In this document: in pieces, positions 2,721 to 54,895 of the stretch
Numbering within the stretch: the first letter of the stretch is position 1
How the letters are laid out: the number at the start of each line of letters is the position of its first letter
From: a virus
Taxonomy: Duplodnaviria; Heunggongvirae; Uroviricota; Caudoviricetes
Length of the DNA: 64,000 nt
Direction: 5' to 3' (one strand)
Virus record (IMG/VR): IMGVR_UViG_3300037488_000489
Span: 53,712 to 117,711 of that record
Notes under the pieces: model-generated
What the model saw: the letters and a program-made list of their open reading frames with translations, nothing else
Databases searched by the model: none
What the model was told of the DNA's origin: nothing
Program-made: the position numbers and the translations under genes

Positions 2721-3057
2721 AGAACAATCTTTCTACAAATCCTGGAAGGTCTTGTGCAGAATTCAGACTTCCTGCTGGGCAAATATGATCCACGTTGATT
2801 TGTTTCTCTGGAAACCATAATTTACAGCTATTGCATTGATATTCAAACTTTTGTCTCTTGCTGGGACCTTTATAGAGTCTGCGAGCTTTTAATTTACATT
2901 CACTAATAGGTTTCCACCATCTAGATTTCTGTCTCAATCCACTTCTAATGAAACTCCAGAATCCTGACTCTGTCATAGTACCAGCATTCCTAGTTTTAGG
3001 AACTCTTGGTTTTCTAGGAGCAGCAGGCTTTCTTTTGTTTGCTTTTTTCTTTATCAT
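2641..3057 (-). CDS. HNH endonuclease with basic N-terminal tail
   Basis: HNH signature 'CNSCKLWF...VDHICPAG...NLQVLCEECHNIKT' (C..C, DH, N, C..CH). Lys/Arg/Pro-rich N-terminus. Confidence 0.7.
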   Translation of the reverse strand: MIKKKANKRKPAAPRKPRVPKTRNAGTMTESGFWSFIRSGLRQKSRWWKPISECKLKARRLYKGPSKRQKFEYQCNSCKLWFPEKQINVDHICPAGSLNSAQDLPGFVERLFCEQENLQVLCEECHNIKTKKDKDERD

Positions 3058-3107
3058 ACTTTAATTTTAAATAACCCCTGGAGACAAAGTCCCCAGGGAT
3101 TACAAAT

Positions 3108-4679
3108 TTAATCAATTGTAACGATTCTTCCTGAAATTTCTTCTTTAATCTCATCAAGACTTCTAACAATTGTATATACTTCTACAGCTGATAAAGCAGG
3201 TAAATTGAAATCATACTTCTTGGCTTCTGCAGTGAATCCTTCTTTAGCTTTCTCAGCCAAGTTTTGCAATTCGCGAATCGCATAAGACTCATCTAATTGT
3301 AATGTATCAAAGTCTAAGTCATGTAAGATTTCTGTGGCTTCCTCACGTGGCACAGTCATAATTGGTAAATACTCATAGCATCTACCCTTAGACTCACCAA
3401 TACCTACAACCTTCATTGGATTGATTAGTACGAGAACGCTCGTATCACCACAACCTACATAATGAATCTCATCACTGGTAAAGTGTAAACCTTCAGCACC
3501 ACAATCATCAGTATTCCATCTACAGTTTTCCATAGGCATGTTTACTGGTCTACCAATACGGATGTCAAATGTTCTTGTATGAGCATCTGTGAATCTATTC
3601 TCTGCTCTATTAGGCAAATCAAGATATAACTCAGTTAAGTTACCAATCTCTTCACCATATTGAGACTCACAATTCTTGTACACTGTACCAGAACCAGAAC
3701 ACTCTGGACACTCTACATTATCACCATCGTTACAATTAGTATATCCTTCAAACCAATCATCTTCTTCATGATAAGGAACATATCCTGTACCATCACAGAA
3801 TGTACATGGCTCTAGTTCTTCAAATATAGATTTAGCAACCATTTTGTATTCACCGTCCTTTAAGAACACTAAATAATCATCAGGCTTCTTCTTCCATACA
3901 GCTTTCACTTTATTGTAAGCATTACTTACAAAGTGTACAAGCTCAGTAGATCCATGAAGTGTAACAACATTACGAAGAGCTACAAAGAATCCTTGCTTAG
4001 TGATGCTAAAGCTATTCTTCTTTAAGAAGTTATATAACTTATCAGCAACCTCAGCTCTTGGATTCAAGCAACACCACATAAAGAAACGCTTAAGTGCTTG
4101 ATACTCTTCATCTTCTATTACAAGAGCATTCATTTCATCTATATCAGCCATTCCATTAAAAGAATAACTACCAATGATTTCTAAGAACTCTTCTACCATC
4201 AAAGGTGGAATGCTTCTATTGATTCCTTTAAGATATAAACTACCGTGTTTCATCTCAAAATCATCAAACTTAGCTAGGAATTCAGCACCTTTTTGAACAG
4301 CCTTAGCTTTTTCATACTCAGCTTCAGCTTTTCTTCTTGCATCTTTAACTTCCTGCGTACTAACAAGATCAAATAAACAAGCCTCTGTTGTACATCCTCT
4401 AGCAAGATTGAAATCATCAGAAGTTGCTGGAGATTTAGTAATAATGTTACCATCATTCATTACAATAGTCAATGTATCATTAACCATTTTAATGTTTAGA
4501 TAAGGCTTATTTTGTAATGTTGTATTTTCTGTAGTGGTTGAACTCCATTGATAAGGAGAAGAAAGGGTTTGAGCCCCCTCTTCATTATCTAATTCATTGA
4601 ACGCTTGTTCAATTTTGTTTTCTACTACTTTTTCAATTGTGCGTTCTATAGCACTTTTAAACCATTTTAGACTTAACAT
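3108..4679 (-). CDS. hypothetical protein with DnaJ-type CxxCxGxG zinc-finger repeats (523 aa)
   Basis: Two canonical CxxCxGxG motifs 'CTFCDGTGYV' and 'CPECSGSGTV' plus extra Cys pairs. Immediately downstream of the GHKL ATPase gene. Confidence 0.55.
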   Translation of the reverse strand: MLSLKWFKSAIERTIEKVVENKIEQAFNELDNEEGAQTLSSPYQWSSTTTENTTLQNKPYLNIKMVNDTLTIVMNDGNIITKSPATSDDFNLARGCTTEACLFDLVSTQEVKDARRKAEAEYEKAKAVQKGAEFLAKFDDFEMKHGSLYLKGINRSIPPLMVEEFLEIIGSYSFNGMADIDEMNALVIEDEEYQALKRFFMWCCLNPRAEVADKLYNFLKKNSFSITKQGFFVALRNVVTLHGSTELVHFVSNAYNKVKAVWKKKPDDYLVFLKDGEYKMVAKSIFEELEPCTFCDGTGYVPYHEEDDWFEGYTNCNDGDNVECPECSGSGTVYKNCESQYGEEIGNLTELYLDLPNRAENRFTDAHTRTFDIRIGRPVNMPMENCRWNTDDCGAEGLHFTSDEIHYVGCGDTSVLVLINPMKVVGIGESKGRCYEYLPIMTVPREEATEILHDLDFDTLQLDESYAIRELQNLAEKAKEGFTAEAKKYDFNLPALSAVEVYTIVRSLDEIKEEISGRIVTID

Positions 4680-4691
4680 GTTTTTTGTTTT

Positions 4692-7052
4692 TTAAATTGT
4701 TTGTAATTCTTCAATTGTGTCTTCTGTCAATACTTCTTCCAAGGATGCATCCTCATTGAGCTTTATTGTGTAGTGCTCAAGGTTCACCTTGTGTTTATTA
4801 TATTTAAATAGATCAACATACGCTTTTAATAAGTCTTTATCTAATCCACCATAATAAGAACCTACTTGTCCCATTAATGGATTTAAGAACGTGAGCTTTT
4901 TAAATACTTCTTCCACCTGCTTGTACACTACTAGTATCTCCTGATCAAACAAGTTTTGATCTAAAGCTAATTCTAAAATTGCTTCTTTAGTTGTACTGTC
5001 ACAATAAGGTCTAGCATACTTATTACTATATTGTCTTATCACTTCTAACTTATCATAAAGATCTGTAGATATCTGTTTAACAATCTCAGTTCTTCTAAAA
5101 GTTTGACTATAAGTGTTTACCATCTTCTCAACGAGAAGTTGTGTAGCCATTGTTCTAAATGGTCTGTTTTTACCTTCCATAAATTTTTCTAATGTTATCC
5201 AGTTATGTAAATCTGCTTTCTGTAAGTTATCTATTGTAGCTTGTGCAACAATAACAAAGTTTGCTTGGTCACTAAATACAGACCAAAGCTTATCTAGCTT
5301 CTCTCTTTGTTCTTCTTTAGTATATACATGCAGTTTATTAACTTTATGAACATCTTCTAATTTAAATGTTGTAGGAACAAACTTAGAATATCTATCAGAA
5401 TATGTAATCTCTGTCTTGGTACCAACCTTACCAGAGAATTCACCTTTCATTCTAACCTTCTTAATACCATTCACTGTTACAGGATTAGATAACACCTTCA
5501 TTCTTTTAGCTTTCTGAGCATCTATCCATGTCTGTGGAATCTCAATAGCATCTACATCAATAAAATCTTTAGAATATAAACTAATTACATACTGGAATTC
5601 TGTGATGAGTTGTCTCCATTGACTCTTTGGATAGTTCTTAAGACTTAGAATAGAATGATAATACTTATTGTAATCAACAGATTCACCTTTCATTAATTGA
5701 AAAGGTTTTTCTTTTTTTACAAATAAGTGACACTTGCTGCTATCACCAAGTAAGCTTCTCATGTAATCTTGCTTATTCTTAGCAAGTCTATCAGAGAATA
5801 GATAAACATTACCAGCATTGTAAGAACCAATGTCTTGAATTCTTAGGTTACCACCCCAATAATTCTTAGCATTATTGAATCTGTTTCCTTGGTATCTAAA
5901 CTTTATTTGATACTCAGCTAACATGTATTCCTTGTTATGCTCAGCCATTCTCTTAAGATCTAACAACTCTACACCTTCAAGTTTAGGTTGTTTTAAAGGA
6001 ATAGTTGCATACTTAAGAAGCTCGTCAATCTCAATTCTATCTTCTTCTTTTCTATAAAAGCTTGGTAAAGATTTACGTCTATCTCCATAAAAGCTCATAA
6101 TAGAATTAATATCAGCTTTATCAGAAATTGATTCATTGAACTTCTCCATGAATACATCTGCCACCTGAGCTAGCTTTTTAAGAATAACTTGTTTAGCTTC
6201 CTGTGTATATCTGATAGCCTCTCTATTTGGTGTAGGAAACAATCCATCACTAAGACTAAAACGTAAAGCTATTTTGATATTAATCCTTTCAATACCAAGC
6301 TTCTCCCAGTCAATTGGATAGCTAACATTGTCCAAACATAAATGCATGTAATTGTTAGTAGCTATACTAGAGAATTGGAAATGCTCAGCTCTATGAATTG
6401 TGAAATCATTACTAACAGCATAACTGATGCTATTATCTACATCAAAGTATACATTCTCAAAATAAGCTAATTGCTCTTTAATCTTTTGAGTGAAACTGTG
6501 TCTATCATAATAGTTTACAGGTACAATCACCTTAACACCGTTTGGCTCTTCTGTAGCCTTTTCGTACAACAAGTCAATACTATTTGTATCTTCTCCTTCA
6601 TACATCATATACTTGCGTTCCATACCATCTTTTCTAGCTACAAAGTAGAAGCTAGAACTGTAAGCTAGTGGAGCTTTGAAACCTAAGCCCATCATACCTA
6701 ACTCTGTATTGCTATTACGCTTGGTTGATTTACCATACTTACTGATAATGTTAACTACATCATCTGCATCTAAACCAATACCAAAGTCTTCAACAGCAAA
6801 TTCATATGTATCTGCCTGATTATTTCTCTTAAATGAGACAATAATAGGTCTGTCACTCCCAGCTCTTCTGTGACTATCTAGTGCATTGGATGCACATTCT
6901 CTGATAGTAGAGCCTACTGAATCTGAATATAGATTCTTACTTAACATCTGCATCAATACTTGAGCAGAATCTAAGTCTAATGACATTTTCACAGTTTCCT
7001 GTGACTCTCCGTCTTGGAGGATGTGTGCTTCTGTTTGTTTTTCTAAGATCAT
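4692..7052 (-). CDS. GHKL (Bergerat-fold) ATPase, MORC/Hsp90-like, 786 aa
   Basis: N-box 'ECASNALDS', G1 box 'VEDFGIGLDADD', G2 box 'GMMGLGFKA' (GxxGxGFK, MORC/HATPase_c_3-like), all in the N-terminal 130 aa. Confidence 0.65.
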   Translation of the reverse strand: MILEKQTEAHILQDGESQETVKMSLDLDSAQVLMQMLSKNLYSDSVGSTIRECASNALDSHRRAGSDRPIIVSFKRNNQADTYEFAVEDFGIGLDADDVVNIISKYGKSTKRNSNTELGMMGLGFKAPLAYSSSFYFVARKDGMERKYMMYEGEDTNSIDLLYEKATEEPNGVKVIVPVNYYDRHSFTQKIKEQLAYFENVYFDVDNSISYAVSNDFTIHRAEHFQFSSIATNNYMHLCLDNVSYPIDWEKLGIERINIKIALRFSLSDGLFPTPNREAIRYTQEAKQVILKKLAQVADVFMEKFNESISDKADINSIMSFYGDRRKSLPSFYRKEEDRIEIDELLKYATIPLKQPKLEGVELLDLKRMAEHNKEYMLAEYQIKFRYQGNRFNNAKNYWGGNLRIQDIGSYNAGNVYLFSDRLAKNKQDYMRSLLGDSSKCHLFVKKEKPFQLMKGESVDYNKYYHSILSLKNYPKSQWRQLITEFQYVISLYSKDFIDVDAIEIPQTWIDAQKAKRMKVLSNPVTVNGIKKVRMKGEFSGKVGTKTEITYSDRYSKFVPTTFKLEDVHKVNKLHVYTKEEQREKLDKLWSVFSDQANFVIVAQATIDNLQKADLHNWITLEKFMEGKNRPFRTMATQLLVEKMVNTYSQTFRRTEIVKQISTDLYDKLEVIRQYSNKYARPYCDSTTKEAILELALDQNLFDQEILVVYKQVEEVFKKLTFLNPLMGQVGSYYGGLDKDLLKAYVDLFKYNKHKVNLEHYTIKLNEDASLEEVLTEDTIEELQTI

Positions 7053-7054
7053 AA

Positions 7055-7417
7055 TTAAAAGTTTACTTCTATGTTAAATTCTTTAAGGATTTCTTTTGCT
7101 TTAATAATGTTTTCTATGTCTACTTGTTCTGTAATGTTATCTCTATTTAATTTGAGAATTCTTGTGTCCCTTGGTGTATTTACATAACTCTTCCAAATTC
7201 TAGTGAGTTTCCAAGGTTTTTCAAAATCATTATATTGTGCATCTTTATGGGATTTTTCCCACCAGTTTTTAGACTCAACTACTCCTGAAGGTGTAAAGTA
7301 CTGAAATGTACCACCTCTTCCTTGACCATAATATATACCAACACTAAAATCATTACCATTAGCTATGGCTACTAAATCACCTTTGTGGATATCTCCACCT
7401 ACTTTTACGTTATACAT
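7055..7417 (-). CDS. hypothetical protein (120 aa)
   Basis: ORF in minus-strand array; Gly-rich centre. Confidence 0.5.
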   Translation of the reverse strand: MYNVKVGGDIHKGDLVAIANGNDFSVGIYYGQGRGGTFQYFTPSGVVESKNWWEKSHKDAQYNDFEKPWKLTRIWKSYVNTPRDTRILKLNRDNITEQVDIENIIKAKEILKEFNIEVNF

Positions 7418-7429
7418 AATTGTTTTTGT

Positions 7430-8149
7430 TTAAAATGGTGTACCATCTAACCATTCAATTTGAAAATTATTGTTGTCTTTAATCACCTTGTTTACCATTC
7501 TGAATACATCTCCAGATTCCCATTCTGTATTCTTATAGCTAGCTGATGCAGGGTGTGTAGTTGTGAAACTCCATACAAATGGATTTGCATATCTAGCATA
7601 CTGTGCAGCATCTTTACCTAAGAATATATAAGGAACTTGTTGAGGATTTAAAATCTCCTCTATGACATATTTAGTGAATGGTTCCCATAGTTTGATATGA
7701 CTACCTGCTTTGTTAATCTCAGTGGTTAGAGATGCATTAAACATCAATACACCCTGGTGAGCTAGATAGCTTACATCTGGATTAGTCTTGTCACAATAGG
7801 CACATAGTCCATTGTACACTTCTCTTTCAATTGCCCCATAGAACTGCTCTAATGAAGGCTGTAATATACCAGTGGTAGAACAGCCCATTAATAAACCATC
7901 TGCTACAGGAGAACCTTGTTTAAGTGTATGATATGGAGCCATACCCATCATTACAATCTTTAGCTCATCTAGTGGAGTCTCCATAAAACATCTATAGACA
8001 TTAGAAGACAGAGGAGCAATTTTCTTGCCCCTCTGACTCTCTGACTTAAGAAATTTATAGATTTCATCACAAGCTTCGCTCTCAATAAATGGTCTCATCT
8101 TTAAGTGCCAAGACTCATGAAACTGATCTTTAAATTTTTCCCAATTCAT
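7430..8149 (-). CDS. uracil-DNA glycosylase family-1 (UNG) homolog with substituted catalytic aspartate
   Basis: Collinear UNG motifs: 'FHESW' (FGESW), 'GMAPYH' (GQDPYH, Asp to Ala), 'LAHQGVLMFNASLT' (WAKQGVLLLNAVLT), 'GSH', 'WEPFT' (WEQFT), 'IFLGKDAAQYA' (FLLWGSYAQKK), 'THPASASY' (AHPSPLSVY), 'IEWLDG' (IDWKEL). Confidence 0.75.
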   Translation of the reverse strand: MNWEKFKDQFHESWHLKMRPFIESEACDEIYKFLKSESQRGKKIAPLSSNVYRCFMETPLDELKIVMMGMAPYHTLKQGSPVADGLLMGCSTTGILQPSLEQFYGAIEREVYNGLCAYCDKTNPDVSYLAHQGVLMFNASLTTEINKAGSHIKLWEPFTKYVIEEILNPQQVPYIFLGKDAAQYARYANPFVWSFTTTHPASASYKNTEWESGDVFRMVNKVIKDNNNFQIEWLDGTPF

Positions 8150-16952: not shown

Positions 16953-17193
16953 CTATGTTTGTACTACCTATTGAATATCTAAGATCGTACTTCTCTCTGA
17001 AAAATCTAAATGCCTGTCTATATGTAGGAGCGTGGATTAGATTGGTCATATTAATAGACATGTTTCTATATATATTCCATTTTAATTCTAAATCCTCATC
17101 TTTCTCTCCTAAATAATGTGCAGCACATTTTTCATTAAAGCCTAACTCTTTAAGGTCTTTTGATTCTTGATATGGTAAAAATTCTTTTTCCAT
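16831..17193 (-). CDS. hypothetical protein (120 aa)
   Basis: ORF directly downstream of the polymerase gene (1-nt overlap). Confidence 0.4.
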   Translation of the reverse strand: MEKEFLPYQESKDLKELGFNEKCAAHYLGEKDEDLELKWNIYRNMSINMTNLIHAPTYRQAFRFFREKYDLRYSIGSTNIVVCHTPVNDYHTTQLLQNNASYEDAELATIKFFIEKAKQL

Positions 17194-19145
17194 TAGAATA
17201 ATGTCATTTGATTGGGATTAATAATAATTTTTCTTTTTTTACCTTCTAATTGTATCTTATGTACAATACGCTCAGCACGCTCTATATAATATGCGTGATT
17301 AATGTTATCCAGAGGATGGTCTTTGGTTAATTTATTACAAACTGTCATTAGCCATTCACCTGCTTCTACTTGACTCACATCTGCTGCATTAGTTGTACAA
17401 TCAGGATTTTTTATCTTTAAGAGTTTCTCTCCTGTATTAGATACATAATAACGAATCAACTTGTTGTACACTGTTCTTTTAGCACCAGCTACACCTTCAT
17501 AATGAAAGTCTTTACTAGCCTTCTGCCTTAATGCAAAATCATATATATTATTATGATTGGTGATAGTGTCAGCAATAGGTATATTGTGAACAAAATACTG
17601 TTCAAGAGCCATAGGAATAACACGACCAGACTTATTTTTATGTAGCTCAAAATCTGTGAGGAAATCTCCTTTCTTTTTAATTTCTCCATTTGTTTTAATT
17701 GCTAAATAGTCATTTACTGTTGAGAATATAATCTTAGCATAGTCTGTACGCTCTAGTTCATATGTAGTTAAATCCATCCACCACTTATTAAGCTCATGCA
17801 TCTTATCAATCTTGTTCTTATCAATCTGAATTGTAACACCATCTGTGTTAGCTGATATAACATGTATACCATTCAATTCATACTGTTCAATCAACATTAA
17901 TAGACTCAATTCACCTGTAATAGTAGTGAACATAGTTAGTTGTCTATCATAGATCCAGTTCTGCATATCAGAGCTTTTACCATACACAGAGTTAACTGCT
18001 AACTTCAATGCTCCAACAATACCTGCTATCTTCTTATCCTTCTTAGCTAAAGGTTTGAGTTCTAGTCTCTTCTCAAACATCTGTTTGTATCCTCTAAGAA
18101 ACTCTTTACCTAAATGCTGTGGATATTTACCATTGTTAATGATAATAGCTGGATAGTATGAACTAACATCCCAATCAATGATTTCTACATCTTCATCAGC
18201 CTCAAATATCTTGGGCTTGTTTTCTGTATGTAAACCACCCTTGGCAAATGTATATGTATTATTATAGAACACTAATGACTCTTTAAAATCATCAGTCATT
18301 GTAAAGATTTGTTTCTTTACATGCTTTAAGAATGCTTGCAGCTCTGGTGTCTGGAATGTTACATAATCAGCAATACAATTTCTAGCTTTAACATCTTTAC
18401 GAAAGTATCCTTTCTTTGGTAGATCGCTGTATTGTATACCTTTCTCTGAACAATAATACTTCTTAATCATTTCGTCACCAATCTTACTATCAGAATAGTT
18501 AAGACATGGTATACCAAACTCTTCTTCAATATCTTGTCTGAGCTCTATTTGATTATTACCCTTATATAATGGATGTTCAGTGTTACCTGTTGTTACCAAA
18601 TAGAATTCATAAGTGGCATATATATCATTGCGACAGTAATCAATAGTTAGTTCTATTTCATCATCAGTCATGTTAGTCTTTGTGTGATGGATAGGCATCT
18701 CTTCAATGTTCTCTAGATCCATCTCAAACTCTAATCGTTTCAATGATACACGTCTGTTCTTATTATCATAATGATTAACTCTAAACAAATCTATTTGCTT
18801 ATTAGATAACCATTCTTCCCTATATTCTGGGAATACATCATAGTTTGCATCATGTATTATGTCTGCAGCCTTCTGAGCTATCAATGCACATACATCTAGT
18901 GCACCTATCTCATGCCAGTTCTGATGATTGCGTATGATCCACTCAACTACTTGACTGTCAAAGCGTAGATTGTTATAACCTACCCAATAGAAGTCTTTAT
19001 AGTCTTCTGTGAATCTAACAAACGCATCAATCTGGTTTGTATTTTTACTCACCTGGAATTCATGCCATTGCTGTGTTTCAGGATTATATATACAAACTAG
19101 AAACAGCTCCTGCATGGTTTCTATGTCATAGATGAGTACGTTCAT
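17193..19145 (-). CDS. family-B DNA polymerase (compact, 650 aa) with 3'-5' exonuclease domain
   Basis: Exo I 'LIYDIET', Exo II 'YNNLRFDSQ', Exo III 'YCRNDIYATYE', motif A 'DWDVSSYYPAII' (DxxSLYP), motif B 'KLAVNSVYGK' (Kx3NSxYG), motif C 'ISANTDGV' (NTDG in place of DTDS). Confidence 0.85.
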   Translation of the reverse strand: MNVLIYDIETMQELFLVCIYNPETQQWHEFQVSKNTNQIDAFVRFTEDYKDFYWVGYNNLRFDSQVVEWIIRNHQNWHEIGALDVCALIAQKAADIIHDANYDVFPEYREEWLSNKQIDLFRVNHYDNKNRRVSLKRLEFEMDLENIEEMPIHHTKTNMTDDEIELTIDYCRNDIYATYEFYLVTTGNTEHPLYKGNNQIELRQDIEEEFGIPCLNYSDSKIGDEMIKKYYCSEKGIQYSDLPKKGYFRKDVKARNCIADYVTFQTPELQAFLKHVKKQIFTMTDDFKESLVFYNNTYTFAKGGLHTENKPKIFEADEDVEIIDWDVSSYYPAIIINNGKYPQHLGKEFLRGYKQMFEKRLELKPLAKKDKKIAGIVGALKLAVNSVYGKSSDMQNWIYDRQLTMFTTITGELSLLMLIEQYELNGIHVISANTDGVTIQIDKNKIDKMHELNKWWMDLTTYELERTDYAKIIFSTVNDYLAIKTNGEIKKKGDFLTDFELHKNKSGRVIPMALEQYFVHNIPIADTITNHNNIYDFALRQKASKDFHYEGVAGAKRTVYNKLIRYYVSNTGEKLLKIKNPDCTTNAADVSQVEAGEWLMTVCNKLTKDHPLDNINHAYYIERAERIVHKIQLEGKKRKIIINPNQMTLF

Positions 19146-20041: not shown

Positions 20042-20314
20042 TTATTTCTTTTTTGCTGCTTTTTTCACTGTTTTAGGCACTATATTGCTCTTTTTAGAAC
20101 TATATTTCTCTTTTCCTTCAAGAGTTGTTAGTAATGCAGCACTAATTATTTTAAGCAATTCTTCATCTTGTTCCATTGCACTTGCAAATGCAGCACCAAG
20201 ACCAGCACCATTATTCATATCATCACTATATATAACGTCTACATGATTACCATTTACGTTCATAAAGAAATGAGCACTAATGTCTTTTACTTTTAAGGTT
20301 TTACTTTTTGCCAT
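20042..20314 (-). CDS. hypothetical protein with Lys-rich C-terminus (90 aa)
   Basis: ORF ending '...TVKKAAKKK'. Confidence 0.45.
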   Translation of the reverse strand: MAKSKTLKVKDISAHFFMNVNGNHVDVIYSDDMNNGAGLGAAFASAMEQDEELLKIISAALLTTLEGKEKYSSKKSNIVPKTVKKAAKKK

Positions 20315-20347
20315 GTTTGTGTTTGTTTAATTGTTAATGTTTAATTG

Positions 20348-20758
20348 TGGAGGTGAGGGGAGTTGAACCCCTGTCCAGACAAGTGATAATAATACCATTC
20401 TTACATGCTTAGATCTGAAGCTGTTCATGTACATTTACTTAGAGCAATTACAATGTATTACTACATAGTCCTAAGCACTTCTAATCAGTAGTTGGGATCG
20501 CAGGTCTTGCTATCTACCACCACTCTATTTTGACATAATAGAGAAAACGCTTGTAACTTTCTGTTGCCAGGTTGTTACCACCCCGTTGACTAAGCTGCTA
20601 ATGCATACTCAGTAGCGAAGATAGAAGCTAAGATAGCTTCACCTTCTGCAACACGCTCAGATTGACTCTTTACGGTTATTGTTTAGAACTTGTTTACCTG
20701 TTCCAAGGCTTGCATGTGATACTACCAGCCTCATGTCTGTCAAAGCCAGTACACCCCC
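20348..20758 (-). ncRNA. ssrA: tmRNA (ssrA), phage-encoded
   Basis: Minus strand 5' end GGGGGUGUACUGGCUUUGACAG (consensus GGGGcUGauucUGGaUUcGAC). 3' end GGACAGGGGUUCAACUCCCCUCACCUCCA has a T-arm and 7-bp acceptor with G3:U70. Internal tag frame GCA GAA GGU GAA GCU AUC UUA GCU UCU AUC UUC GCU ACU GAG UAU GCA UUA GCA GCU UAG ends ...ATEYALAA-stop. Confidence 0.8.
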
Positions 20759-20759
20759 A

Positions 20760-20957
20760 TTATATATGTCTATCTAAAGATATATTCTTACAGAATCTGA
20801 TTTCTTTATTGCTCAATGTCCATATCTCACCATTATCCATGGCACATGTAAATAAAAGATTATGCTCTTGGCTATAGTCTATAACCAAGAAAGCATAACC
20901 TTCCATTTCATCAGAATATCTCATGATAGGTATCATTGGATTCAGTTGGAGAATCAT
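20760..20957 (-). CDS. hypothetical small protein (65 aa)
   Basis: ORF ending 2 nt from the tmRNA 5' end; coding status uncertain. Confidence 0.3.
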   Translation of the reverse strand: MILQLNPMIPIMRYSDEMEGYAFLVIDYSQEHNLLFTCAMDNGEIWTLSNKEIRFCKNISLDRHI

Positions 20958-21292: not shown

Positions 21293-22099
21293 TTATTTTA
21301 ATTTTGTGAATAATTCAACCAATTTACCATCTTCTTGTGTAGCTAATACAAACTCTTTCTTGTTTTTCTTAAGGTTTTCTAAGAACTTAGGATGATTATA
21401 TTTGCTTGTACCTCTTACAAATTTAACGTATTCTCTACATAAATATTTGTTTTCAAATCTATTCATTCTAGGAACAACCTTCAATACATCTGTTAAATTG
21501 TTTAATATGTTGATATTCTTTGCCTCATCAACTATTTTAAACTCTCCACATTTGATTCTTCTAGTGATATTACCACCATCTGATACATTATTACATAATA
21601 TAGAAGATAATACACCCATGTCAAAATCATATACTTGGTAGTAATGATTAAGCTTTACATAATCAGGAACTAATGAGCTCCATGCTGTAATGTAATCAGT
21701 TAGAGCCCAGTTCTTAGATGATGCATTCAATAATGCAATCTTCTCTACTAGTTCTACCTTGTCTTTTACAGTGATTATTACATATGGAATGTCCATGTTG
21801 TTTCTAATCAACGCATTAAACAAATGCTGACCATCAATGATGTAAGTTTTCTTTTTACCATCAATAAATGCTATTTCAGCTGCTACAACAGGTCTAATAA
21901 TACCCATTCTGTTTACTGAATTTGCTAATTTAGTCACCTGAGCTGGATTAATAGCTCTGTTAATACCTGCTAGGTAATAAAATGACTGTTTACTGTCTTT
22001 TTTCAATGTTGAGATTTTCATGTTTTCTGTGTTTATTTTTAGATTTTTTATAATGTCTACTAGCTTGTTGTTGTCTAAGTACTTGCTTAGGTGTGTCAT
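21293..22099 (-). CDS. ParB-like nuclease domain protein
   Basis: ParB/Srx N-terminal domain pattern 'IRPVVAAE...YIIDGQHLFNAL' (DGxH(R)xxA). Confidence 0.55.
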   Translation of the reverse strand: MTHLSKYLDNNKLVDIIKNLKINTENMKISTLKKDSKQSFYYLAGINRAINPAQVTKLANSVNRMGIIRPVVAAEIAFIDGKKKTYIIDGQHLFNALIRNNMDIPYVIITVKDKVELVEKIALLNASSKNWALTDYITAWSSLVPDYVKLNHYYQVYDFDMGVLSSILCNNVSDGGNITRRIKCGEFKIVDEAKNINILNNLTDVLKVVPRMNRFENKYLCREYVKFVRGTSKYNHPKFLENLKKNKKEFVLATQEDGKLVELFTKLK

Positions 22100-25693: not shown

Positions 25694-26107
25694 CTACAAC
25701 CAAATGTTTTCCTCTTTGACAATAGACTTAACTATTTCAGTCATTCTCAACTCAAACTCATCACTATTCTTACGAGGTTTAGATCCTAATACTGTATTAA
25801 TCCTAATGGTGTTCTTCTTACTATCGTGCTTGTTAAAGTAGATTGTAAGACCATTAGTCTTAATTTTACCATTGCGACCATTATCATCTAATGTCACAAC
25901 AGCCTTGTCCAAACCTAATGCTTCCATTGGTAGCGTTAAGATTGGTAAATTCTCATCAAGGCTTAGTTGATCAGGATAACAGCATTCATCAAGCTTTAAT
26001 TGTTTAAAGCCATCAATCATTCTTGGATTAACAAAGAAATGAGTAATGCCATCTAATGGATTAGTTACCATCATCTTCTTGAAATCATAATAGAACTGCA
26101 TAATCAA
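25694..26107 (-). CDS. hypothetical immediate-early protein (137 aa)
   Basis: First ORF leftward of the divergent control region. Flanked by CAGGTGGGGTATC-type repeats and followed by its own terminator. Confidence 0.5.
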   Translation of the reverse strand: MIMQFYYDFKKMMVTNPLDGITHFFVNPRMIDGFKQLKLDECCYPDQLSLDENLPILTLPMEALGLDKAVVTLDDNGRNGKIKTNGLTIYFNKHDSKKNTIRINTVLGSKPRKNSDEFELRMTEIVKSIVKEENIWL

Positions 26108-26231
26108 AAGTTTTAAAGATTAATAAATTTAGCAAAGTTGTTTTTATCATAAAACTCATCAACCTTGCTAAGGGGCTGATTAAAAAAAAGGTCAATCTTG
26201 CTATTTTAAAGCAGTGTTTGATACTAATGAT

Positions 26232-26274
26232 CAGGTGGGGTATCCCCAACCTCTCAATTCACAGGTGGGGTATC
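26232..26274. repeat. two direct copies of CAGGTGGGGTATC spaced 30 bp apart
   Basis: Exact 13-mer at 26232..26244 and 26262..26274. GC-rich motif in an AT-rich genome. Confidence 0.7.
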
Positions 26275-26988
26275 AAGCAGTAGTACCCTCTCCTCCCTTG
26301 GACAAGGGGGGTTGTTAAGTTGGAAAAAAAATTTTGTAAAATGTTCCACAAGGAACGTTGGGTATAATCATCTGAGGACCAATGGGTTAACATGCCCCTG
26401 TGTTAAATGTTTGCATGAATTTTTCCAAATGTTGCATGCACATTGTGTCACACTTTTTCAAATATTTGTGACATTCTTGTAACATATTTATAGTACTATT
26501 TGTTACAGACTTCCAGGTTTGGCAGTCTTTCACTTCCTAGATTGTCAAGTTTTTGGATCAGGAAACTTGACACATTTGTCCAGTTTTATCAATCAAAATC
26601 TGGACATTTGTCAATCAATAGCTTTACTTTAGTTTACGTTTTGTCAAGCAATTGCTTTACATAATGTGTCTTATAAGGGACATGCTCAGCTTAACAATGT
26701 TGCTTTTATAACACATTAAGATATGTTATGGTATGTAGTGATGGAATGTTGCACCAAAATTATAAACTCTTGTAGTATCAAAATTAGAAAATTCTGCAAG
26801 TTTTGATAATAGCCAAAAATAAATTTGGTGGTTACAAAAAAGTCTTCGTAACTTTGGGGGGGATTTAGGGGGGGCCCTAAGTACATCTAATCAGCTAATA
26901 CACTATCTACAATTTATTGGTAGAATATAATGGATTATAAAAATAGTGCATAATATAGCATTCCTATTCCAGATAACTAAAATAGTTA

Positions 26989-27019
26989 TTTGACAATCAA
27001 AGGAATATACATACCTTTG
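26989..27019 (+). promoter_or_regulatory. Bacteroidetes-type sigma-A promoter (-33 TTG / -7 TACCTTTG) for rightward module
   Basis: TTG at 26989-91, 19-nt spacer, TACCTTTG at 27012-19. Matches the Bacteroidetes consensus TTG-N19-TAnnTTTG. First gene ATG at 27032. Confidence 0.5.
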
Positions 27020-27031
27020 CTTTAACTAATT

Positions 27032-42218: not shown

Positions 42219-44015
42219 ATGTCTTGTTTACCTGGTACACCTTGCTATGACGCTTATTATCATCCTAGTGAAAACTGTGGATGTGCTGAGTGCATTAGTA
42301 ATTCAAATAATGTAATATATGTTGGTCCTAATTTACCAAACTCAGGAGTTCAAAACGGAGACTGCCTAACTCTTACTATAGAAAAATTAGATGATTCTAT
42401 TGGTACAGGTGGTGGAGGAACAGGTACTTCAGGTACGTCTGGTTCTTCTGGCACTCGTGGCACTAGTGGTACATCAGGAACTTCAGGTATCAACGGTACA
42501 CCAGGAGCTGCTGGTACGTCTGGTACGTCTGGTGTTAATGGTACATCTGGTGGTAACGGTACCTCAGGTACTTCTGGTGTAAGTGGTACAAACGGTGCTT
42601 CAGGAACCAGTGGAACATCTGGTGGAAGAGGTGCTGATGGAACAAGTGGTATTAATGGAACAAGTGGTGCAAATGGCACAAGTGGTCTTACAGGAAGTTC
42701 AGGAACTGATGGTTCTTCAGGAACCTCTGGTATAGATGGAACTTCTGGAACAAGTGCCATAGATGGAACTTCTGGCTCAGCTGGAACTTCTGGAATAGAT
42801 GGCACCTCTGGTAGTTCAGGAACTACTGGAACTTCAGGAACCACTGGAACTTCAGGTACATCAGGCTTTGAAGGAGGTCTTGCACAATGGAGATATAATC
42901 CTAGTACAAACACAAACGTTAATCCTGGTGTTACATACTTCACTTTAAATGATGCAAGTTGGTTAGCGTCTGCTTCTCAAATTGCAATCAGTGATTTATC
43001 ATATAATCCTAGTGCTGACTTCTCAGCATATCTAGATGCATTAAACCCTTTCTCAGCACTTAAGCTAGTTAGTACAGTTGATTCTTCTAGATTTAAAATA
43101 TTAGAAATTGTATCTACTTCTCCTTTTGAAGTGGGTTTTGAAAGATTTATAGTTACTCAAACTGCAGCTCAGGGTACGAATCCTGTAAGTGGTGAAACAT
43201 TTATGATAGTTCCTGTAGGTGCTGCTGGTAGTTCAGGCACATCTGGAACAGCTGGTTCTAGCGGTACTACTGGTACATCAGGCACATCTGGAACCACTGG
43301 TACTTCTGGTACAAGTGGAACGTCAGGGACTTCTGGTTCTTCAGGATCTAGTGGTTCTTCAGGATCTAGTGGTACAACAGGCACATCAGGTACAACAGGC
43401 ACATCAGGTACTACTGGTACTAGTGGAACAACTGGTACATCTGGAACCACAGGAACTTCAGGAACCACTGGTACTAGTGGCTCATCTGGTTCTTCAGGAG
43501 CTAGTACAGGCGGAACTAGTGGAACTAGTGGAACTAGTGGCAATAGTGGTAGTTCTGGTACAACAGGTACCTCTGGTAATAGCGGATCTTCAGGAACATC
43601 TGGAACTAGTGGAGCTAATGGAGCAGGATTTAATTCTATTTCTCCTACAACAGCTGGTTATGTACTTACAGCTAATGGAACATCAAATAGTGCAACAGCA
43701 AATTCAGGAGTTACTATTAGTGGTTCTCAATTAAATGCTGGTTCATTTTATGAAACTTCAGATATAAGATTTAAAAATGTATTAGAAACTAATCCATCTA
43801 TAGATTTACCATTAGATGTAATTAAGTTTACAAGAACAGATGAAGAATCTAATCAAGTTAGATATGGTTACTCAGCACAGCAAGTACAATCAGTGCTTCC
43901 AGATTTAGTATCTGGTGATGAGAAACTAGTGGTTAATTATTCAGATGTACATACATTAAAAATAGCAGCCTTAGAAAAACGCATAGCAGAATTAGAAGCT
44001 AAATTAAACCAATAA
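42219..44015 (+). CDS. collagen-like tail fiber with C-terminal intramolecular-chaperone (peptidase S74-like) domain
   Basis: Two blocks of Gly-X-Y triplets (GTSGTSGSSGTRGTS..., about 50 and 45 triplets). C-terminus 'SDIRFKNV...VRYGYSAQQVQSVLPDLV' matches the SD(I/V)R(L/F)K autoprocessing motif. Confidence 0.75.
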   Translation: MSCLPGTPCYDAYYHPSENCGCAECISNSNNVIYVGPNLPNSGVQNGDCLTLTIEKLDDSIGTGGGGTGTSGTSGSSGTRGTSGTSGTSGINGTPGAAGTSGTSGVNGTSGGNGTSGTSGVSGTNGASGTSGTSGGRGADGTSGINGTSGANGTSGLTGSSGTDGSSGTSGIDGTSGTSAIDGTSGSAGTSGIDGTSGSSGTTGTSGTTGTSGTSGFEGGLAQWRYNPSTNTNVNPGVTYFTLNDASWLASASQIAISDLSYNPSADFSAYLDALNPFSALKLVSTVDSSRFKILEIVSTSPFEVGFERFIVTQTAAQGTNPVSGETFMIVPVGAAGSSGTSGTAGSSGTTGTSGTSGTTGTSGTSGTSGTSGSSGSSGSSGSSGTTGTSGTTGTSGTTGTSGTTGTSGTTGTSGTTGTSGSSGSSGASTGGTSGTSGTSGNSGSSGTTGTSGNSGSSGTSGTSGANGAGFNSISPTTAGYVLTANGTSNSATANSGVTISGSQLNAGSFYETSDIRFKNVLETNPSIDLPLDVIKFTRTDEESNQVRYGYSAQQVQSVLPDLVSGDEKLVVNYSDVHTLKIAALEKRIAELEAKLNQ

Positions 44016-50263: not shown

Positions 50264-53200
50264 ATGGCAGAGCAAGAACAAGGAAATATTAGACAGGAAT
50301 TTAGTCTAGGTAGAACTGGACTAAACATGGACTCATCTGTAAATCAGGTTGAGAAGGGTAAGCTTACGTATGCCTTAAATGCATCTGTTGAGAATTTTAG
50401 TGCTACTGCTGTAAACTATCAAAATGAACCAGGTAATGAGTTATGTCTAAACTTTCCTGAGAATTTTCATCTTATTGGAACACATTTTATTCAAGAGAAG
50501 AATCAACATATATTCTTTTTAACTAATCCTGAAACTGGGGCTTCTCAGATTGGATACATGGATAACAACGATTGTATCTATCACATGTACGTAGAAGGAC
50601 TTTGTTTAAACTTTAATATTAACTATCCAATACAAAAAGCTGTACACAAGATTTCAAATTGCAGTACAGAGATTTATTGGACAGATGGATTAAACCCTAG
50701 AAGATATTTAGATCTTGATAACATTCCATATATTACAACTTTTCCAGATGGTGTTATTTGTGATCCTATTGTAACACCAATACTTGATTGTAATAAATTA
50801 AAGATACAACCTAATTTTAGTATTCCAGATTTAGAAGTTGTTGATGTTATTAATGGTGGAGATTTAAAAGCTGGTACATATCAATTTGCTATTCAATATT
50901 GTAGTGCCCAAGGAGATGCATACACTTCTTACTATTCAGTAACTAATCCAACTCCTATTGCTAATCCAAAATTAACCACAGCTAACTTTGATTACGCTGT
51001 AGGTAGATCTATTGTAATTGATATAAGCAATATTGATTTAACAGGATACTTTGAATATTACAATCTAGCTGTAATTAAAACAATAAATGATATCACCTCT
51101 GTTCAATTAGTAGGTACATATTTTATTGATGGTGCTACAAATCAAATTACTTATACAGGACAAGATGTAACAGCTATTAGTTTAGCAATTGCTGATATAT
51201 TTGAAAAGTTTCCGTACTATGAGATTGCACAAGATTTAACAGCTGTACAAGATATTCTTGTATGGGATCAACTTACATCTATTGATAAAATTAATTATCA
51301 AAGTATTGCTAGTAAAATTGATCTTCAATGGCAAACTTACAAAATTCCAGCTGGAGAAACTTACGCTGATGAACTGAATGCTACTAATTTACGTGGATAT
51401 CTACGTGATGAAATATATGCATTTGAAATTGTTTTCTTATTAAGAAATGGTAAGCAAACAGATGGTTTTCATATTCCTGGTAGGGCTGCTACAGCTGATG
51501 ATTTAGTAATTGTTAATAAATCTACAAATGCTGATTTTATTGGTACAGGAACAACTGCTCCTTATTGGAAGATTTATAATACAGCTTCTGTAGTAGGAAC
51601 TGCTATTGGTCCTAATATTGGAAGTGCTACACCTTATGAGTTTGGTAATTTTGCATATTGGGAATCTAATGAGGAATATCCATGTAACACTTTTTTATAT
51701 GGAGATTTAGCTGGACAAAAGATTCGTCATCATAAATTTCCTGATATTCTAGTTAGTCCAATGTTTGAGTCACAAGCTCCAAACTATAATTTTCCAGAAC
51801 TTCAAAAAGCAAATGCTTTATATCCTATTGGTGTTAAAATAAATACACAACAGGTAACATCGTTAATTGATAACTCTAATCTAACAGCTGATCAAAAAGC
51901 TGATATAGTTGCATATAAAATTGTAAGAGGTGATAGGGCTACAAACAAATCTATTGTAGCAAAAGGTATGTTAAGAAATGTTGGTACTTACGAAAGAGAA
52001 GGTACACAATATTACTATCCTAACTATCCTTATAATGACATTAAGACTGATCCATTTTTATTAAAAGATAATAATGCTTATAACGCTCAATGTCAAACAT
52101 TTAAAGTTGTAGTTGCTACAGTTGGTACAATGCAAATAACTGATTGTTATACAGGAGAAGTTACTGCTGTTGCTATGCCTTTAGGAATGACTAGCATATG
52201 TTCTATTACAGTTCCTTTAGTAATTACAGGATCTGCTACATTTACTAATGTTACAGCTGTATCTTATACATTAACTTCTTATCTATCAATTCCTTCAACA
52301 TCTACTACATTTATATATACTGATCCAGTTACACTAGTGAGTGTTAATGTAACTGTTCCAATAAATACTTCAATTACTGTTAGTTCTACAACTGTTCCTA
52401 GTCGTGTAAGTGGATCTCCTAGATATACAATATTAGAGACTACTAATAATAAAAATACAAATTGTTATCCAGTTAATTTAAGTGGATTTGATAATAGTTC
52501 TAAATATAGAATGGTGTTTAATTCACCAGAGACTTCTTTTGGGCAACCTTATTTAGGCAATGTGCTTAAGTTAGAAAGTGCTATGTTTGGAGGGGGTAGA
52601 GCACACTTTGTACAAGTTAAAAATCATGCATTATATAAGTTAATTACTAAACAAGCACAAGTAGATGCTTTAACCTCAAGTTATAATATTGCTAATATAA
52701 CAGCTCCATTTAATGCTACTGCAATGTTCACTGCTTACCAAGCGTATTTAACAATTTATATTAATGGTATTAGCAGAAGAAACTTTACATATTCATTTAA
52801 TTCCACTGCTCAATATGATTATAATGCAGATGTTCAAAACGCTGCTCCTGATGCATTTGGTAACATAGGTGTTAAACAAAGGGAACTTGATTTATATCAA
52901 TATCTTATTCCTGGTTTTCAATCTGTTGGTGATGTTTATAATGTAAATAACTTTCAAAGAGAATCTTCTGTTTATTTAAAAACATTAGATGCTATAACTC
53001 CATTGCCATTTGCTGAACAAACTCCATCTTTAGTGGTTGCTGGAAACAGTTTAATTACTGATGATTCAAGATTTACAATTTCTTCAAGAGATAATTGTGC
53101 TTCTCCAGAGATGCAAGAACCTATTAAAGTGGTATCTTATTATGGGTCTATCAAGAACATAAATATTAATCAGTGGGGACAACTATATTCATATCAAACA

Positions 53201-54895
53201 ATTGATACAGGTTTTCAAAAACATTTGTCTGATGTAGCAGGAGTTGATACTGTATTTGGTGGAGATACATTTATTGGTAGATTTGCTTATAAAACTAAAC
53301 TTCCTTTCTTTATTGATAATAGAGTGGGGGCTCCTGATGATAGTGATATTTTTTATGATGAATTAGGTAATGTTGCCTACCCACAATACTGGTACTCAGC
53401 TAGATCTATACTAAGCAATTATAAAGCTGGTGCAACAATAATGAAAAATATTATATCTATTAAGGCACATTATCTTGATTGCCCTAATGATTATACTTTT
53501 ATAAGTAATACTACTACTACTACTTCTACTACAGCTGCTCCAGGTAGTACATCTTTGAGTGATGCAACCTATTCATATGACGGTAAGATGTATCTATTTG
53601 CTTATGGTATTCCTTATTACTATGTAGAAAGTTCTATAAATGTAGACTTGCGTCAAGCATTTAATAACTTAGAAGGTGATTACTATCCACACGTGAGCTC
53701 AGGTATTCCTGATAACTGGTTACAACAATCTGTTGTTCCAATTCAGTTTGACAATACATATACATATAATGTAACGTATTCAAAACAGAATAAAGAAAAC
53801 TTCTTCTCTCACTTACCTGTAGATTTTGATGACGACCAATGTTATACAAGCTTTCCATTCAGAGCAGTTTATTCTGAGGCACAAGCAGATAATCCAAGCG
53901 TAAGAGTAAATAGTTGGTTAAATTATAAACCTGTAGCATTCTTTGATTTTCCTCAAAACTATGGCAAGTTAACATCACTAGATGGTATTCAAAATAAAGC
54001 TGTGTTAGCTAGATTTGAGAATAAGTCATTGTTATACAACACGTTGTTAACAATGAATACAAGTAATCCTCAAGCTGCTTATTTAGGCAATCCTTCTTTA
54101 TTTAGATCTGCTCCTCCAATTGATTTTGCTGAGACAGACCTTGGATATGTAGGAAGTCAAAATAAGTTCTTATTAAAGATTCCTAATGGACAAGTGACTA
54201 TAGATGCCAAGAGAGGACAAGTATTTCTTATTAATGGAATGGGTGGTCAAATACAAGACTTATCTGCATTTGGTTCAGGACTTAATAAGTTCTTTACAGA
54301 CCATCTAGCATTTGAAATCTTACGTTACTATCCTAATGCTGATACAGATAATCATTTTAATGCTTGTGGTTTACATGGTGTATATGATAGTAAGTATGAT
54401 AGAATCATTATTTCTAAACTTGATTATATTCCTCAACCAGCATATGCAAGTGTTATTAAATATGATGAGTTGACAGGTGAATATTATATTGATAAAGCTT
54501 ATGGTGATTTATCTTTAAGAAAGGTAGTTAGTTTAACAGACAGACAATACTTCTGTAATAAGTCGTGGACTTTATCATACAGTGTAAATATACAAAGCTG
54601 GGTTAGTTTTCATAGTTATATTCCTAACTGGTACATAGCAGAAAATAACTTCTTCTACTCAGGACTGAATGAAGGATGTGACTTAGAAGCTATTGCTGTT
54701 ATGGAGATTCCTAGCCCAACTACTACAACTACAACAACGATAGTATTAAATTGTAATTTAGATGGTACAGCAGTATATGGTACAACAACTACTACAACAA
54801 CTCCTACTCCTCCTAATTGTACATTAACTGCAGGAAGTGCTGTTGTAGTAACAAGTGATTGTACATTAACTGCTGGAACAGCTATTCTCCAATAA
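50264..54895 (+). CDS. giant virion protein (1543 aa), probable tail/baseplate host-recognition protein with poly-Thr linkers
   Basis: Single uninterrupted ORF. Several poly-Thr linkers ('TTTTSTTAAPGST', 'SPTTTTTTTIVLNCN', 'TTTTTTTPTPPNCTL'). C-terminal duplicated 'CTLTAG(S/T)A' motif. Confidence 0.55.
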   Translation: MAEQEQGNIRQEFSLGRTGLNMDSSVNQVEKGKLTYALNASVENFSATAVNYQNEPGNELCLNFPENFHLIGTHFIQEKNQHIFFLTNPETGASQIGYMDNNDCIYHMYVEGLCLNFNINYPIQKAVHKISNCSTEIYWTDGLNPRRYLDLDNIPYITTFPDGVICDPIVTPILDCNKLKIQPNFSIPDLEVVDVINGGDLKAGTYQFAIQYCSAQGDAYTSYYSVTNPTPIANPKLTTANFDYAVGRSIVIDISNIDLTGYFEYYNLAVIKTINDITSVQLVGTYFIDGATNQITYTGQDVTAISLAIADIFEKFPYYEIAQDLTAVQDILVWDQLTSIDKINYQSIASKIDLQWQTYKIPAGETYADELNATNLRGYLRDEIYAFEIVFLLRNGKQTDGFHIPGRAATADDLVIVNKSTNADFIGTGTTAPYWKIYNTASVVGTAIGPNIGSATPYEFGNFAYWESNEEYPCNTFLYGDLAGQKIRHHKFPDILVSPMFESQAPNYNFPELQKANALYPIGVKINTQQVTSLIDNSNLTADQKADIVAYKIVRGDRATNKSIVAKGMLRNVGTYEREGTQYYYPNYPYNDIKTDPFLLKDNNAYNAQCQTFKVVVATVGTMQITDCYTGEVTAVAMPLGMTSICSITVPLVITGSATFTNVTAVSYTLTSYLSIPSTSTTFIYTDPVTLVSVNVTVPINTSITVSSTTVPSRVSGSPRYTILETTNNKNTNCYPVNLSGFDNSSKYRMVFNSPETSFGQPYLGNVLKLESAMFGGGRAHFVQVKNHALYKLITKQAQVDALTSSYNIANITAPFNATAMFTAYQAYLTIYINGISRRNFTYSFNSTAQYDYNADVQNAAPDAFGNIGVKQRELDLYQYLIPGFQSVGDVYNVNNFQRESSVYLKTLDAITPLPFAEQTPSLVVAGNSLITDDSRFTISSRDNCASPEMQEPIKVVSYYGSIKNININQWGQLYSYQTIDTGFQKHLSDVAGVDTVFGGDTFIGRFAYKTKLPFFIDNRVGAPDDSDIFYDELGNVAYPQYWYSARSILSNYKAGATIMKNIISIKAHYLDCPNDYTFISNTTTTTSTTAAPGSTSLSDATYSYDGKMYLFAYGIPYYYVESSINVDLRQAFNNLEGDYYPHVSSGIPDNWLQQSVVPIQFDNTYTYNVTYSKQNKENFFSHLPVDFDDDQCYTSFPFRAVYSEAQADNPSVRVNSWLNYKPVAFFDFPQNYGKLTSLDGIQNKAVLARFENKSLLYNTLLTMNTSNPQAAYLGNPSLFRSAPPIDFAETDLGYVGSQNKFLLKIPNGQVTIDAKRGQVFLINGMGGQIQDLSAFGSGLNKFFTDHLAFEILRYYPNADTDNHFNACGLHGVYDSKYDRIIISKLDYIPQPAYASVIKYDELTGEYYIDKAYGDLSLRKVVSLTDRQYFCNKSWTLSYSVNIQSWVSFHSYIPNWYIAENNFFYSGLNEGCDLEAIAVMEIPSPTTTTTTTIVLNCNLDGTAVYGTTTTTTTPTPPNCTLTAGSAVVVTSDCTLTAGTAILQ

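Follow-up and report, generated by a model that had tools for sequence, protein, structure and literature searches.

The 64-kb stretch of viral DNA analysed here (the window; part of the IMG/VR record IMGVR_UViG_3300037488_000489, a genome of roughly 113 kb) carries a complete one-piece transfer messenger RNA (tmRNA) gene, ssrA, at 20348..20758 on the minus strand. The only tmRNA that ARAGORN calls in the window spans minus-strand positions 20347..20758 and has the tag peptide VKSQSERVAEGEAILASIFATEYALAA followed by a stop. The Rfam family RF00023 matches 20345..20758 on the same strand with 87.1 bits (E = 2.1e-32), covering model positions 1-374 of 374; the curated gathering score of this covariance model is 47 bits, and RF00023 is the sole Rfam family matched in the window. 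These calls confirm the complete minus-strand tmRNA proposed in an initial annotation made from the sequence alone: the RF00023 match that it suggested checking for is strong, and the 5′ end GGGGGUGUACUGGCUUUGAC and 3′ end GGACAGGGGUUCAACUCCCCUCACCUCCA that it quoted can both be read directly in the sequence. A two-piece (permuted) tmRNA was considered and rejected, because the parts stand in the standard one-piece order in the ARAGORN call as well as in the Rfam match.

A tmRNA encoded by a phage is itself already known. The unexpected part is the length of the tag, 27 residues, and a peptide core within it that is shared with the tags of other phages; the long tag is the most unusual property of the gene, and the one that the initial annotation missed. 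We consider it highly probable, on the sequence evidence set out below, that the gene encodes a functional one-piece tmRNA of a virulent-looking crAss-like phage and that it relies on host factors.

All of the parts of the RNA described here lie on the minus strand and are numbered from position 1 (20758) to the discriminator A at position 411 (20348). The tRNA-like domain has an acceptor stem in which GGGGGUG (RNA 1-7; 20752..20758) pairs at seven of seven positions with CACCUCC (RNA 404-410; 20349..20355), including the alanine identity pair G3:U70 (20756 and 20351), and a T-arm, AGGGG-UUCAACU-CCCCU (RNA 387-403; 20356..20372), with five of five stem pairs. The 7-bp acceptor stem with G3:U70 and the standard T-arm of the initial annotation therefore hold. 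A 3′-terminal CCA is not encoded: the gene reads ACAA, the discriminator A and then CAA, so that CCA must be added post-transcriptionally. Four relatives (L003, L245, L014 and L234) end in ACCA. Many bacterial tRNA and tmRNA genes lack an encoded CCA, which is added enzymatically, and its absence here thus does not exclude the gene from the tmRNA family.

Helix 2 is formed by RNA 20-47 (20712..20739) and RNA 351-383 (20376..20408), the latter strand including the conserved CUAAGCAUGUAAGAAUGGUAUUA. It is present in the minimum free energy (MFE) fold and in the RNAalifold consensus of 15 sequences, in which alignment columns 22-49 pair with columns 499-532 with many compensatory changes. The first pseudoknot, PK1 (RNA 50-76; 20683..20709), is of the H type, with stems GCC/GGU and UUGGAAC/GUUCUAA, and ends 9 nt before the resume codon GUA; the A-rich spacer AAACAAUAACC lies between the two. 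The resume codon is at RNA position 86 (20673-20671), the same triplet being obtained from ARAGORN and from the Infernal alignment to the Rfam model. It opens a frame of 27 codons (20593..20673) with a YALAA C terminus, closed by a UAG stop codon (RNA 167-169; 20590..20592) in the 3′ strand of the helix-5 hairpin, as placed by the sequence and the MFE fold. The codons GCU ACU GAG UAU GCA UUA GCA GCU UAG, from which the initial annotation recognized the tag, are present, but they encode only the last 8 of its 27 residues. PK2 (RNA 174-206; 20553..20585) has stems CGGG/CCUG and GUAAC/GUUAC. Because PK1 occupies RNA 50-76, the frame starts at 86 and PK2 begins at 174, the tag frame sits between the two pseudoknots, as the initial annotation had expected of a genuine tmRNA. 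The remainder is a variable 3′ domain (RNA 216-345; 20414..20543), which holds a conserved and covarying hairpin (CUCUAUU/AAUAGAG), the conserved GGUGGUGG and further hairpins at the usual place of PK3 and PK4. Outside the conserved hairpin, this domain is rich in insertions and deletions among relatives.

The gene belongs to a clade of viral tmRNAs, of which we aligned 15 distinct members from uncultured viral contigs. RNAalifold gives 45 consensus pairs for these sequences, 19 of them with compensatory double changes. Six variants of the acceptor stem occur (GGGGGUG, GGGGCCG, GGGCCUG, GGGCCCG, GGGGAUG and GGGGCUG), each pairing at seven of seven positions; G3:U70 is invariant and acceptor positions 4-6 covary. 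Five T-stem variants likewise all pair at five of five positions. PK1 has an identical topology in all 15 members despite differing stem sequences, and PK2 is formed in 14 of the 15, with compensatory changes such as GUCAU/AUGAC and GCUAU/AUAGC. In every member, the tag frame begins at one and the same aligned resume column and stays open for 23-27 codons; its length changes are in frame, the resume codon (GUA, GCA or GAC) always starts with G and the C termini are of the A-x-AA type. The ratio of non-synonymous to synonymous polymorphism (pN/pS) in the tag is mostly 0.2-0.9, which leans towards purifying selection and is weak on 27 codons. Taken together, covariation, pseudoknots, the open frame and in-frame insertions and deletions exclude a decaying passenger, and the covariation across the clade shows that the gene is under selection.

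To place the tag in context, we compared tmRNAs that have an identical 3′ 29-mer. Tag length in this set has a median of 10 amino acids (range, 8-23) for 46 distinct bacterial tags and of 30 amino acids (range, 23-43) for 17 distinct viral ones. The sequences are not independent, and the Mann–Whitney P value for this difference (p = 6e-10) is therefore a guide only. Four of the viral tags were corrected by hand: two tmRNAs (L087, 6015-6449; L082, 9204-9654) were missed by ARAGORN and score 152.7 and 137.4 bits with Rfam, with tags of 34 and 33 amino acids, and in two others (L090, 7003-7474; L088, 1308-1712) ARAGORN mis-called the tag, the real frames being 31 and up to 43 amino acids. Surveys that use only ARAGORN probably undercount phage tmRNAs and misreport long tags.

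Within the long tags of widely differing phage genomes, an acidic amphipathic core recurs, AE-x-[ED]-A-[IF]-[LIF]-A with an aromatic residue after it. In the window phage the segment reads AEGEAILASIF (core AEGEAILAS). The corresponding cores are AEGGAIIAS in a member of the same clade (L235), AEADAILAS in a 168-kb contig (L090), AEADAILAK in a 158-kb contig (L289), AEADAFLEA in a further viral contig (L101) and AEIEAFFAE in the mycobacteriophage Bxz1, the genome of which has 64% GC; the sources comprise crAss-like phage, jumbo-phage contigs and Bxz1. The use of different synonymous codons for the core in each source favours a constraint at the level of the peptide over one at the level of the RNA. 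A broader pattern search of IMG/VR for tRNA-like domains returned tags of both kinds, some short and host-like and others long. Many of the short-tag hits may be host genes at the edges of proviruses, and long tags are frequent, if not necessarily universal, among tmRNAs that clearly lie within a phage genome. Bona fide phage tmRNAs, including that of Bxz1, appear typically to have long tags that share a peptide core. Neither the 27-residue tag nor the tag of Bxz1 had a match by tblastn; even Bxz1 itself was missed, probably through low-complexity masking, and these searches are thus uninformative. A literature search found no paper on long phage tmRNA tags with a shared core.

The tag also differs from the rest of the RNA in its pattern of substitution. 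The window and its relative L001 differ at 23 positions, 19 of them inside the 84-nt tag frame (20590-20673) and 4 outside (Fisher p = 6e-11), whereas the window and L232 have 2 differences within the tag and 92 in the rest of the RNA. As the window combines an L001-type scaffold with an L232-type tag, these comparisons point to a tag segment with a history different from that of its scaffold, and to tag cassettes that were swapped between scaffolds by recombination. Within the tag, the first 8 codons (GUA AAG AGU CAA UCU GAG CGU GUU; 20650-20673) are identical at the nucleotide level in the window and five relatives (L001, L003, L006, L232 and L243), and the second half is heavily substituted in the same six members. 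The first 8 codons may be under an RNA-level constraint, for example as a binding site or a structure.

Tags that exceed the typical bacterial length also occur in tmRNAs of the other type. In L094, L095, L102 and L106, permuted two-piece tmRNAs lie within tRNA clusters and have tags of 23-31 amino acids, in which an extension, AKTSDVA or AKTD-PA, is followed by ANNIVAFSR...; we take these tags to resemble cyanobacterial ones.

On the reading that we favour, a functional phage tmRNA that depends on its host, the gene would be co-transcribed with a leftward early or replication block, and host RNase P and 3′ processing enzymes would excise the tmRNA before a host enzyme adds CCA. The host alanyl-tRNA synthetase would charge it with alanine through G3:U70, and host SmpB and EF-Tu would bring the charged tmRNA to ribosomes stalled on broken or non-stop mRNAs. 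Translation would resume at GUA and append 27 residues that end in YALAA, and the tagged chains would be degraded by ClpXP-type proteases that recognize this class of C-terminal signal. The benefit is a matter for speculation: the phage may gain extra capacity for ribosome rescue while mRNAs are cleaved and turned over during infection, with a tag of its own choosing, or it may gain control over the fate of the rescued chains. Ribosome rescue or control of rescued chains has likewise been proposed for other phage tmRNAs (PMC9004378, PMC7162821). More speculatively, the extra ~17 residues of the tag, with the core AEGEAILASIF, would probably add a second recognition element.

We tentatively raise the possibility, which we hold to be somewhat less than evenly balanced, that such genes form a class of phage tmRNA with tags two to four times the bacterial length, in which the conserved core is a functional module that sends rescued chains to a fate chosen by the phage. 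If the core is a functional module, trans-translation by phages would be more than a supplement to host rescue, and the rescued chains could be directed to an adaptor or protease, sequestered or protected. Bxz1 infects Mycobacterium smegmatis, which is genetically tractable, and the role of a phage tmRNA tag is therefore open to direct experiment.

An alternative account is that rescue capacity is not the point, and that the phage tmRNA mainly competes with the host tmRNA for SmpB and stalled ribosomes so that chains receive the long phage tag in place of the host tag and meet an altered fate, for example because another adaptor or protease handles them or because they are degraded at a lower or higher rate. 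The length difference between viral and bacterial tags that share a 3′ 29-mer and the conservation of the core across unrelated phages, Bxz1 among them, are in keeping with this account, as is the exchange of tags between scaffolds in the comparisons with L001 and L232, which suggests selection on the tag itself. Mini-tmRNAs that consist of a tRNA-like domain only also exist, in viral contigs (L089) and in phage DS6A, and those of DS6A are thought to titrate SmpB (PMC4131195). However, the window tag retains the canonical YALAA/ALAA degron, which makes ordinary degradation the simplest outcome. We regard this account as rather unlikely; it is compatible with a functional, host-dependent tmRNA and does not exclude it.

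In L089 (IMGVR_UViG_3300042199_000105; 2991-3072 and 5224-5296), the mini-tmRNA is 82 nt long, has an acceptor stem, a helix-2 stub and a T-arm, scores 61.7 bits with Rfam and resembles that of the mycobacteriophage DS6A; at a distance of 2 kb there is a hit to the Pistol ribozyme.

The distribution of the gene bears on whether it is merely carried. We used the neighbouring phage DNA polymerase gene (17193..19145, minus strand; PHROG 1252, E = 3e-141), ~1.2 kb downstream of the tmRNA, as a synteny anchor. IMG/VR yields 438 relatives, and the contigs that carry them reach ~114 kb. ARAGORN places a tmRNA upstream of the polymerase only in L001-L004 and L006 (88-96% polymerase identity) and in L044 (78%), at a distance of ~1-1.6 kb (2.3-2.7 kb for L003 and L004). 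L005, L007-L043 and most other polymerase relatives have no ARAGORN call, and in seven of these Rfam also finds none. In L040, homologues of both open reading frames (ORFs) that flank the tmRNA are kept and a 53-amino-acid ORF occupies the tmRNA slot. Given its absence from many relatives, both closer and more remote, and the filled slot in L040, the tmRNA is best described as a patchy accessory cassette.

A clade-specific 23-mer in helix 2, CTAAGCATGTAAGAAYGGTATTA, is present in 22 viral contigs and has no hits in 185,579 bacterial and archaeal species genomes. In blastn comparisons with 93 bacterial and 20 viral tmRNAs, matches outside the clade are confined to the tRNA-like ends, and no bacterial donor of the window tmRNA appears identifiable from these comparisons. 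The 3′ 29-mer, searched for exactly, occurs in 30 viral contigs and in more than 120 bacterial contigs, which span many phyla and include Verrucomicrobiota, Fibrobacterota, Clostridia and Spirochaetes, and so does not point to a host. We found no match to 50,697 phage records by blastn with the tmRNA, a search that is insensitive for divergent tmRNAs, or by megablast with the surrounding 20 kb; this region of the window phage seems to have no close cultured relative.

These observations weigh on the proposal that a host ssrA was acquired by illegitimate recombination or imprecise excision and is a neutral passenger. Its patchiness and dispensability, and the small ORF in the same slot of L040, would be expected of such a gene. 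By contrast, a sequence in helix 2 that is found in no bacterial genome, matches beyond the clade that are limited to the tRNA-like ends, and 15 diverged copies that keep their helices through compensatory changes and their frame open are unlike decay, and we consider the proposal very improbable.

Members of the clade differ in the RNA genes that accompany the tmRNA. In L235 (790-1330) and L237, a terminator-like hairpin, AAGGGGGATTTATTTCCCCCTTT, precedes the tmRNA and a tRNA gene follows within ~10 nt, so that RNA-gene context varies within the clade. In L242 (IMGVR_UViG_3300028392_000477; 7007-8071), an insertion of 669 nt interrupts the T-loop of the tmRNA, the break coming after GGGGUU at 7384. 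The insertion comprises a group I intron, matched by Rfam RF00028 at 86 bits, together with a 134-amino-acid ORF (7649-8053) that has a LAGLIDADG-like motif. Beyond it, the tmRNA continues at 8054 with an intact 3′ exon, CGAATCCCCTCAGCTCCA, and the next feature is a tRNA at 8078. An intron with an intact 3′ exon is sensible only if the spliced tmRNA matters.

The window tmRNA lies inside a leftward replication block, between a ParB-like gene ~0.5 kb upstream (21293..22099, minus strand; PHROG 12305 and Pfam ParB_N) and the DNA polymerase gene. This minus-strand block extends from position 1 to ~26,100 and also encodes rIIA- and rIIB-like proteins, a primase, a Sak4-like annealing protein and two helicases. 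A plus-strand block from ~27,000 encodes TerL, the portal, the major head protein, tail fibres, crAss tail ring proteins 1 and 2 and a crAss muzzle protein (50264-54895). The initial annotation put the gene between the replication and structural modules; the boundary with the structural module is in fact ~5.4 kb away. Immediately beside the tmRNA, a single nucleotide separates its 5′ end from the stop codon of a 65-amino-acid ORF (20760..20957, minus strand), and a 90-amino-acid ORF (20042..20314, minus strand) starts 33 nt past its 3′ end; both ORFs have homologues in L040. With ORFs this close on either side, the tmRNA must presumably be excised from a longer transcript.

Phage genes on both sides, and no integrase or recombinase family matched by any window ORF scanned with PHROGs or Pfam, agree with the initial annotation that the phage itself encodes the tmRNA. 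The gene is full length and its position is conserved in related phages: the same arrangement recurs, in colinear alignment, in at least four independent viral assemblies of up to 114 kb. That the region is a host-derived fragment, an outcome that the initial annotation had named as a possible objection, is rejected on these grounds. A tmRNA-derived part of the attP or attL site of an integrating element is the least probable explanation of all: although tmRNA genes are common integration sites and several viral contigs carry the 3′ 29-mer alone at a contig end (for example, L091, L096 and L108), the window gene is complete, including a 5′ half, pseudoknots and a tag of its own, and sits in a phage replication operon with no integrase found in the window, and the full-length Rfam match and the conserved synteny led us to reject it.

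The closest cultured relatives of TerL are from the Leptolyngbya phage Lbo-JY46 (40% identity) and the Cellulophaga phages phi17:2 and phi4:1 (33%), and further relatives are from crAss-like, Flavobacterium and Bacteroides phages. These relatives and the muzzle, ring, TerL and portal genes identify the window phage as crAss-like. Its host is probably a member of the Bacteroidota, judging from relatives; the narrower Flavobacteriia host of the initial annotation is unproven. Lbo-JY46 has no tmRNA in its first 50 kb, which includes the polymerase neighbourhood. Some crAss-like phages are known to recode TAG, the codon at which the tag stops; such recoding has no support in the window phage, in which long late-gene ORFs are intact under the standard code and no suppressor tRNA was found. 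ARAGORN finds no tRNA genes in the window. A scan for sigma-70 promoters gave 12 hits compared with 27 in shuffled sequence and is uninformative for a crAss-like phage, and terminator-like hits are not positioned to delimit a tmRNA transcription unit.

Several points weigh against a functional, host-dependent tmRNA. The whole case for function is built on sequence. The dependence on host SmpB is assumed, and SmpB had no match among the scanned ORFs of the window, which covers 64 kb of the roughly 113-kb genome. RNA 216-345 has no convincing pseudoknots corresponding to PK3 and PK4 and folds no better than shuffled sequence (z = 0.16), and the Rfam alignment of this region is poor, the variable region being the cause of the low mean posterior probability (0.52). 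Such pseudoknots are known to be replaceable. Some pairs of tags have pN/pS values near 1, with 27 codons too few to decide, and in the first 8 tag codons of close relatives RNA-level constraint cannot be separated from peptide-level constraint. Finally, the many close relatives without the gene indicate that the tmRNA is dispensable.

Other features of the window were recorded alongside. From ~26100 to 27030, the leftward replication block gives way to the rightward structural block in a divergent switch, at which the GC skew changes sign; the cumulative GC skew has its minimum at ~24-26 kb, and there is no ORF of at least 60 amino acids between 26107 and 27032. The rIIA-like gene is at 4692-7052 and the rIIB-like gene at 3108-4679. 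A tail-fibre gene at 42219-44015 has collagen-like repeat matches to many PHROG tail-fibre families, and local GC rises there to 0.40 from a background of ~0.33. Small ORFs (<360 amino acids) include Pfam matches to Band_7/SPFH, thioredoxin, an HU-like DNA-binding protein, UDG, DUF932 and DUF3871.

This locus adds an environmental crAss-like lineage to the phages known to carry a tmRNA; our literature search found no earlier report of a tmRNA in this lineage. The initial annotation called phage tmRNAs rare, which overrates the novelty of the finding, as they are uncommon but well documented (PMC4131195, PMC9004378, PMC7162821). One survey counted tmRNAs in 402 of 18,146 phage genomes (2.3%) (PMC9004378), and huge phages also carry them (PMC7162821).

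Compared with the bacterial one-piece tmRNA (RF00023), the window RNA shares the tRNA-like domain with G3:U70, helix 2, PK1, PK2, the G-starting resume codon, the ALAA end of the tag and the stop codon in helix 5. It differs in being encoded by a phage, in its 27-residue tag (compared with the median of 10 in the 46 bacterial tags with the same 3′ end), in the lack of an encoded CCA, in the variable hairpins that replace the PK3 and PK4 region and in its clade-specific helix-2 sequence. The T-loop of the Clostridium botulinum tmRNA is reportedly interrupted by a group I intron (Williams 2002). The intron of L242 is also a T-loop group I intron, but it has a LAGLIDADG-like ORF and lies in a phage genome; the window tmRNA, unlike that of L242, is uninterrupted.

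Marine myophages (Melnitz, pelagimyophages and cyanophages) and huge phages resemble the window phage in having a tmRNA in early or replication regions, with a patchy distribution within groups, and the role proposed for these tmRNAs is ribosome rescue or selective tagging during takeover of the host (PMC9004378, PMC7162821). The marine phage tmRNAs are mostly two-piece (permuted) and resemble those of the host lineage, whereas the window tmRNA is one-piece and has no recognizable bacterial donor. The Melnitz tmRNA bears a glutamine riboswitch, whereas no riboswitch has an Rfam match in the window.

Phage-encoded tmRNAs have also been described in the mycobacteriophage Bxz1 and its relatives (cluster C1) and in Bacillus phage G (PMC4131195, PMC1475703). 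The Bxz1 tmRNA resembles that of the window phage in being complete and in lying within the genome of a lytic phage, outside any integrase context. In Bxz1, a 156-kb myovirus that infects Actinobacteria, the tmRNA lies amid ~30 tRNA genes, in contrast to the tRNA-free window. The tmRNA tag of its host, M. smegmatis, is ADSNQRDYALAA. Bxz1 and the window phage each have a long acidic tag, which in Bxz1 is ATDTDATVTDAEIEAFFAEEAAALV (25 amino acids, from ARAGORN), with a core of the form AE-x-E-A-F/I-F/L-A; the Bxz1 tag ends in ALV, and that of the window phage in the canonical ALAA.

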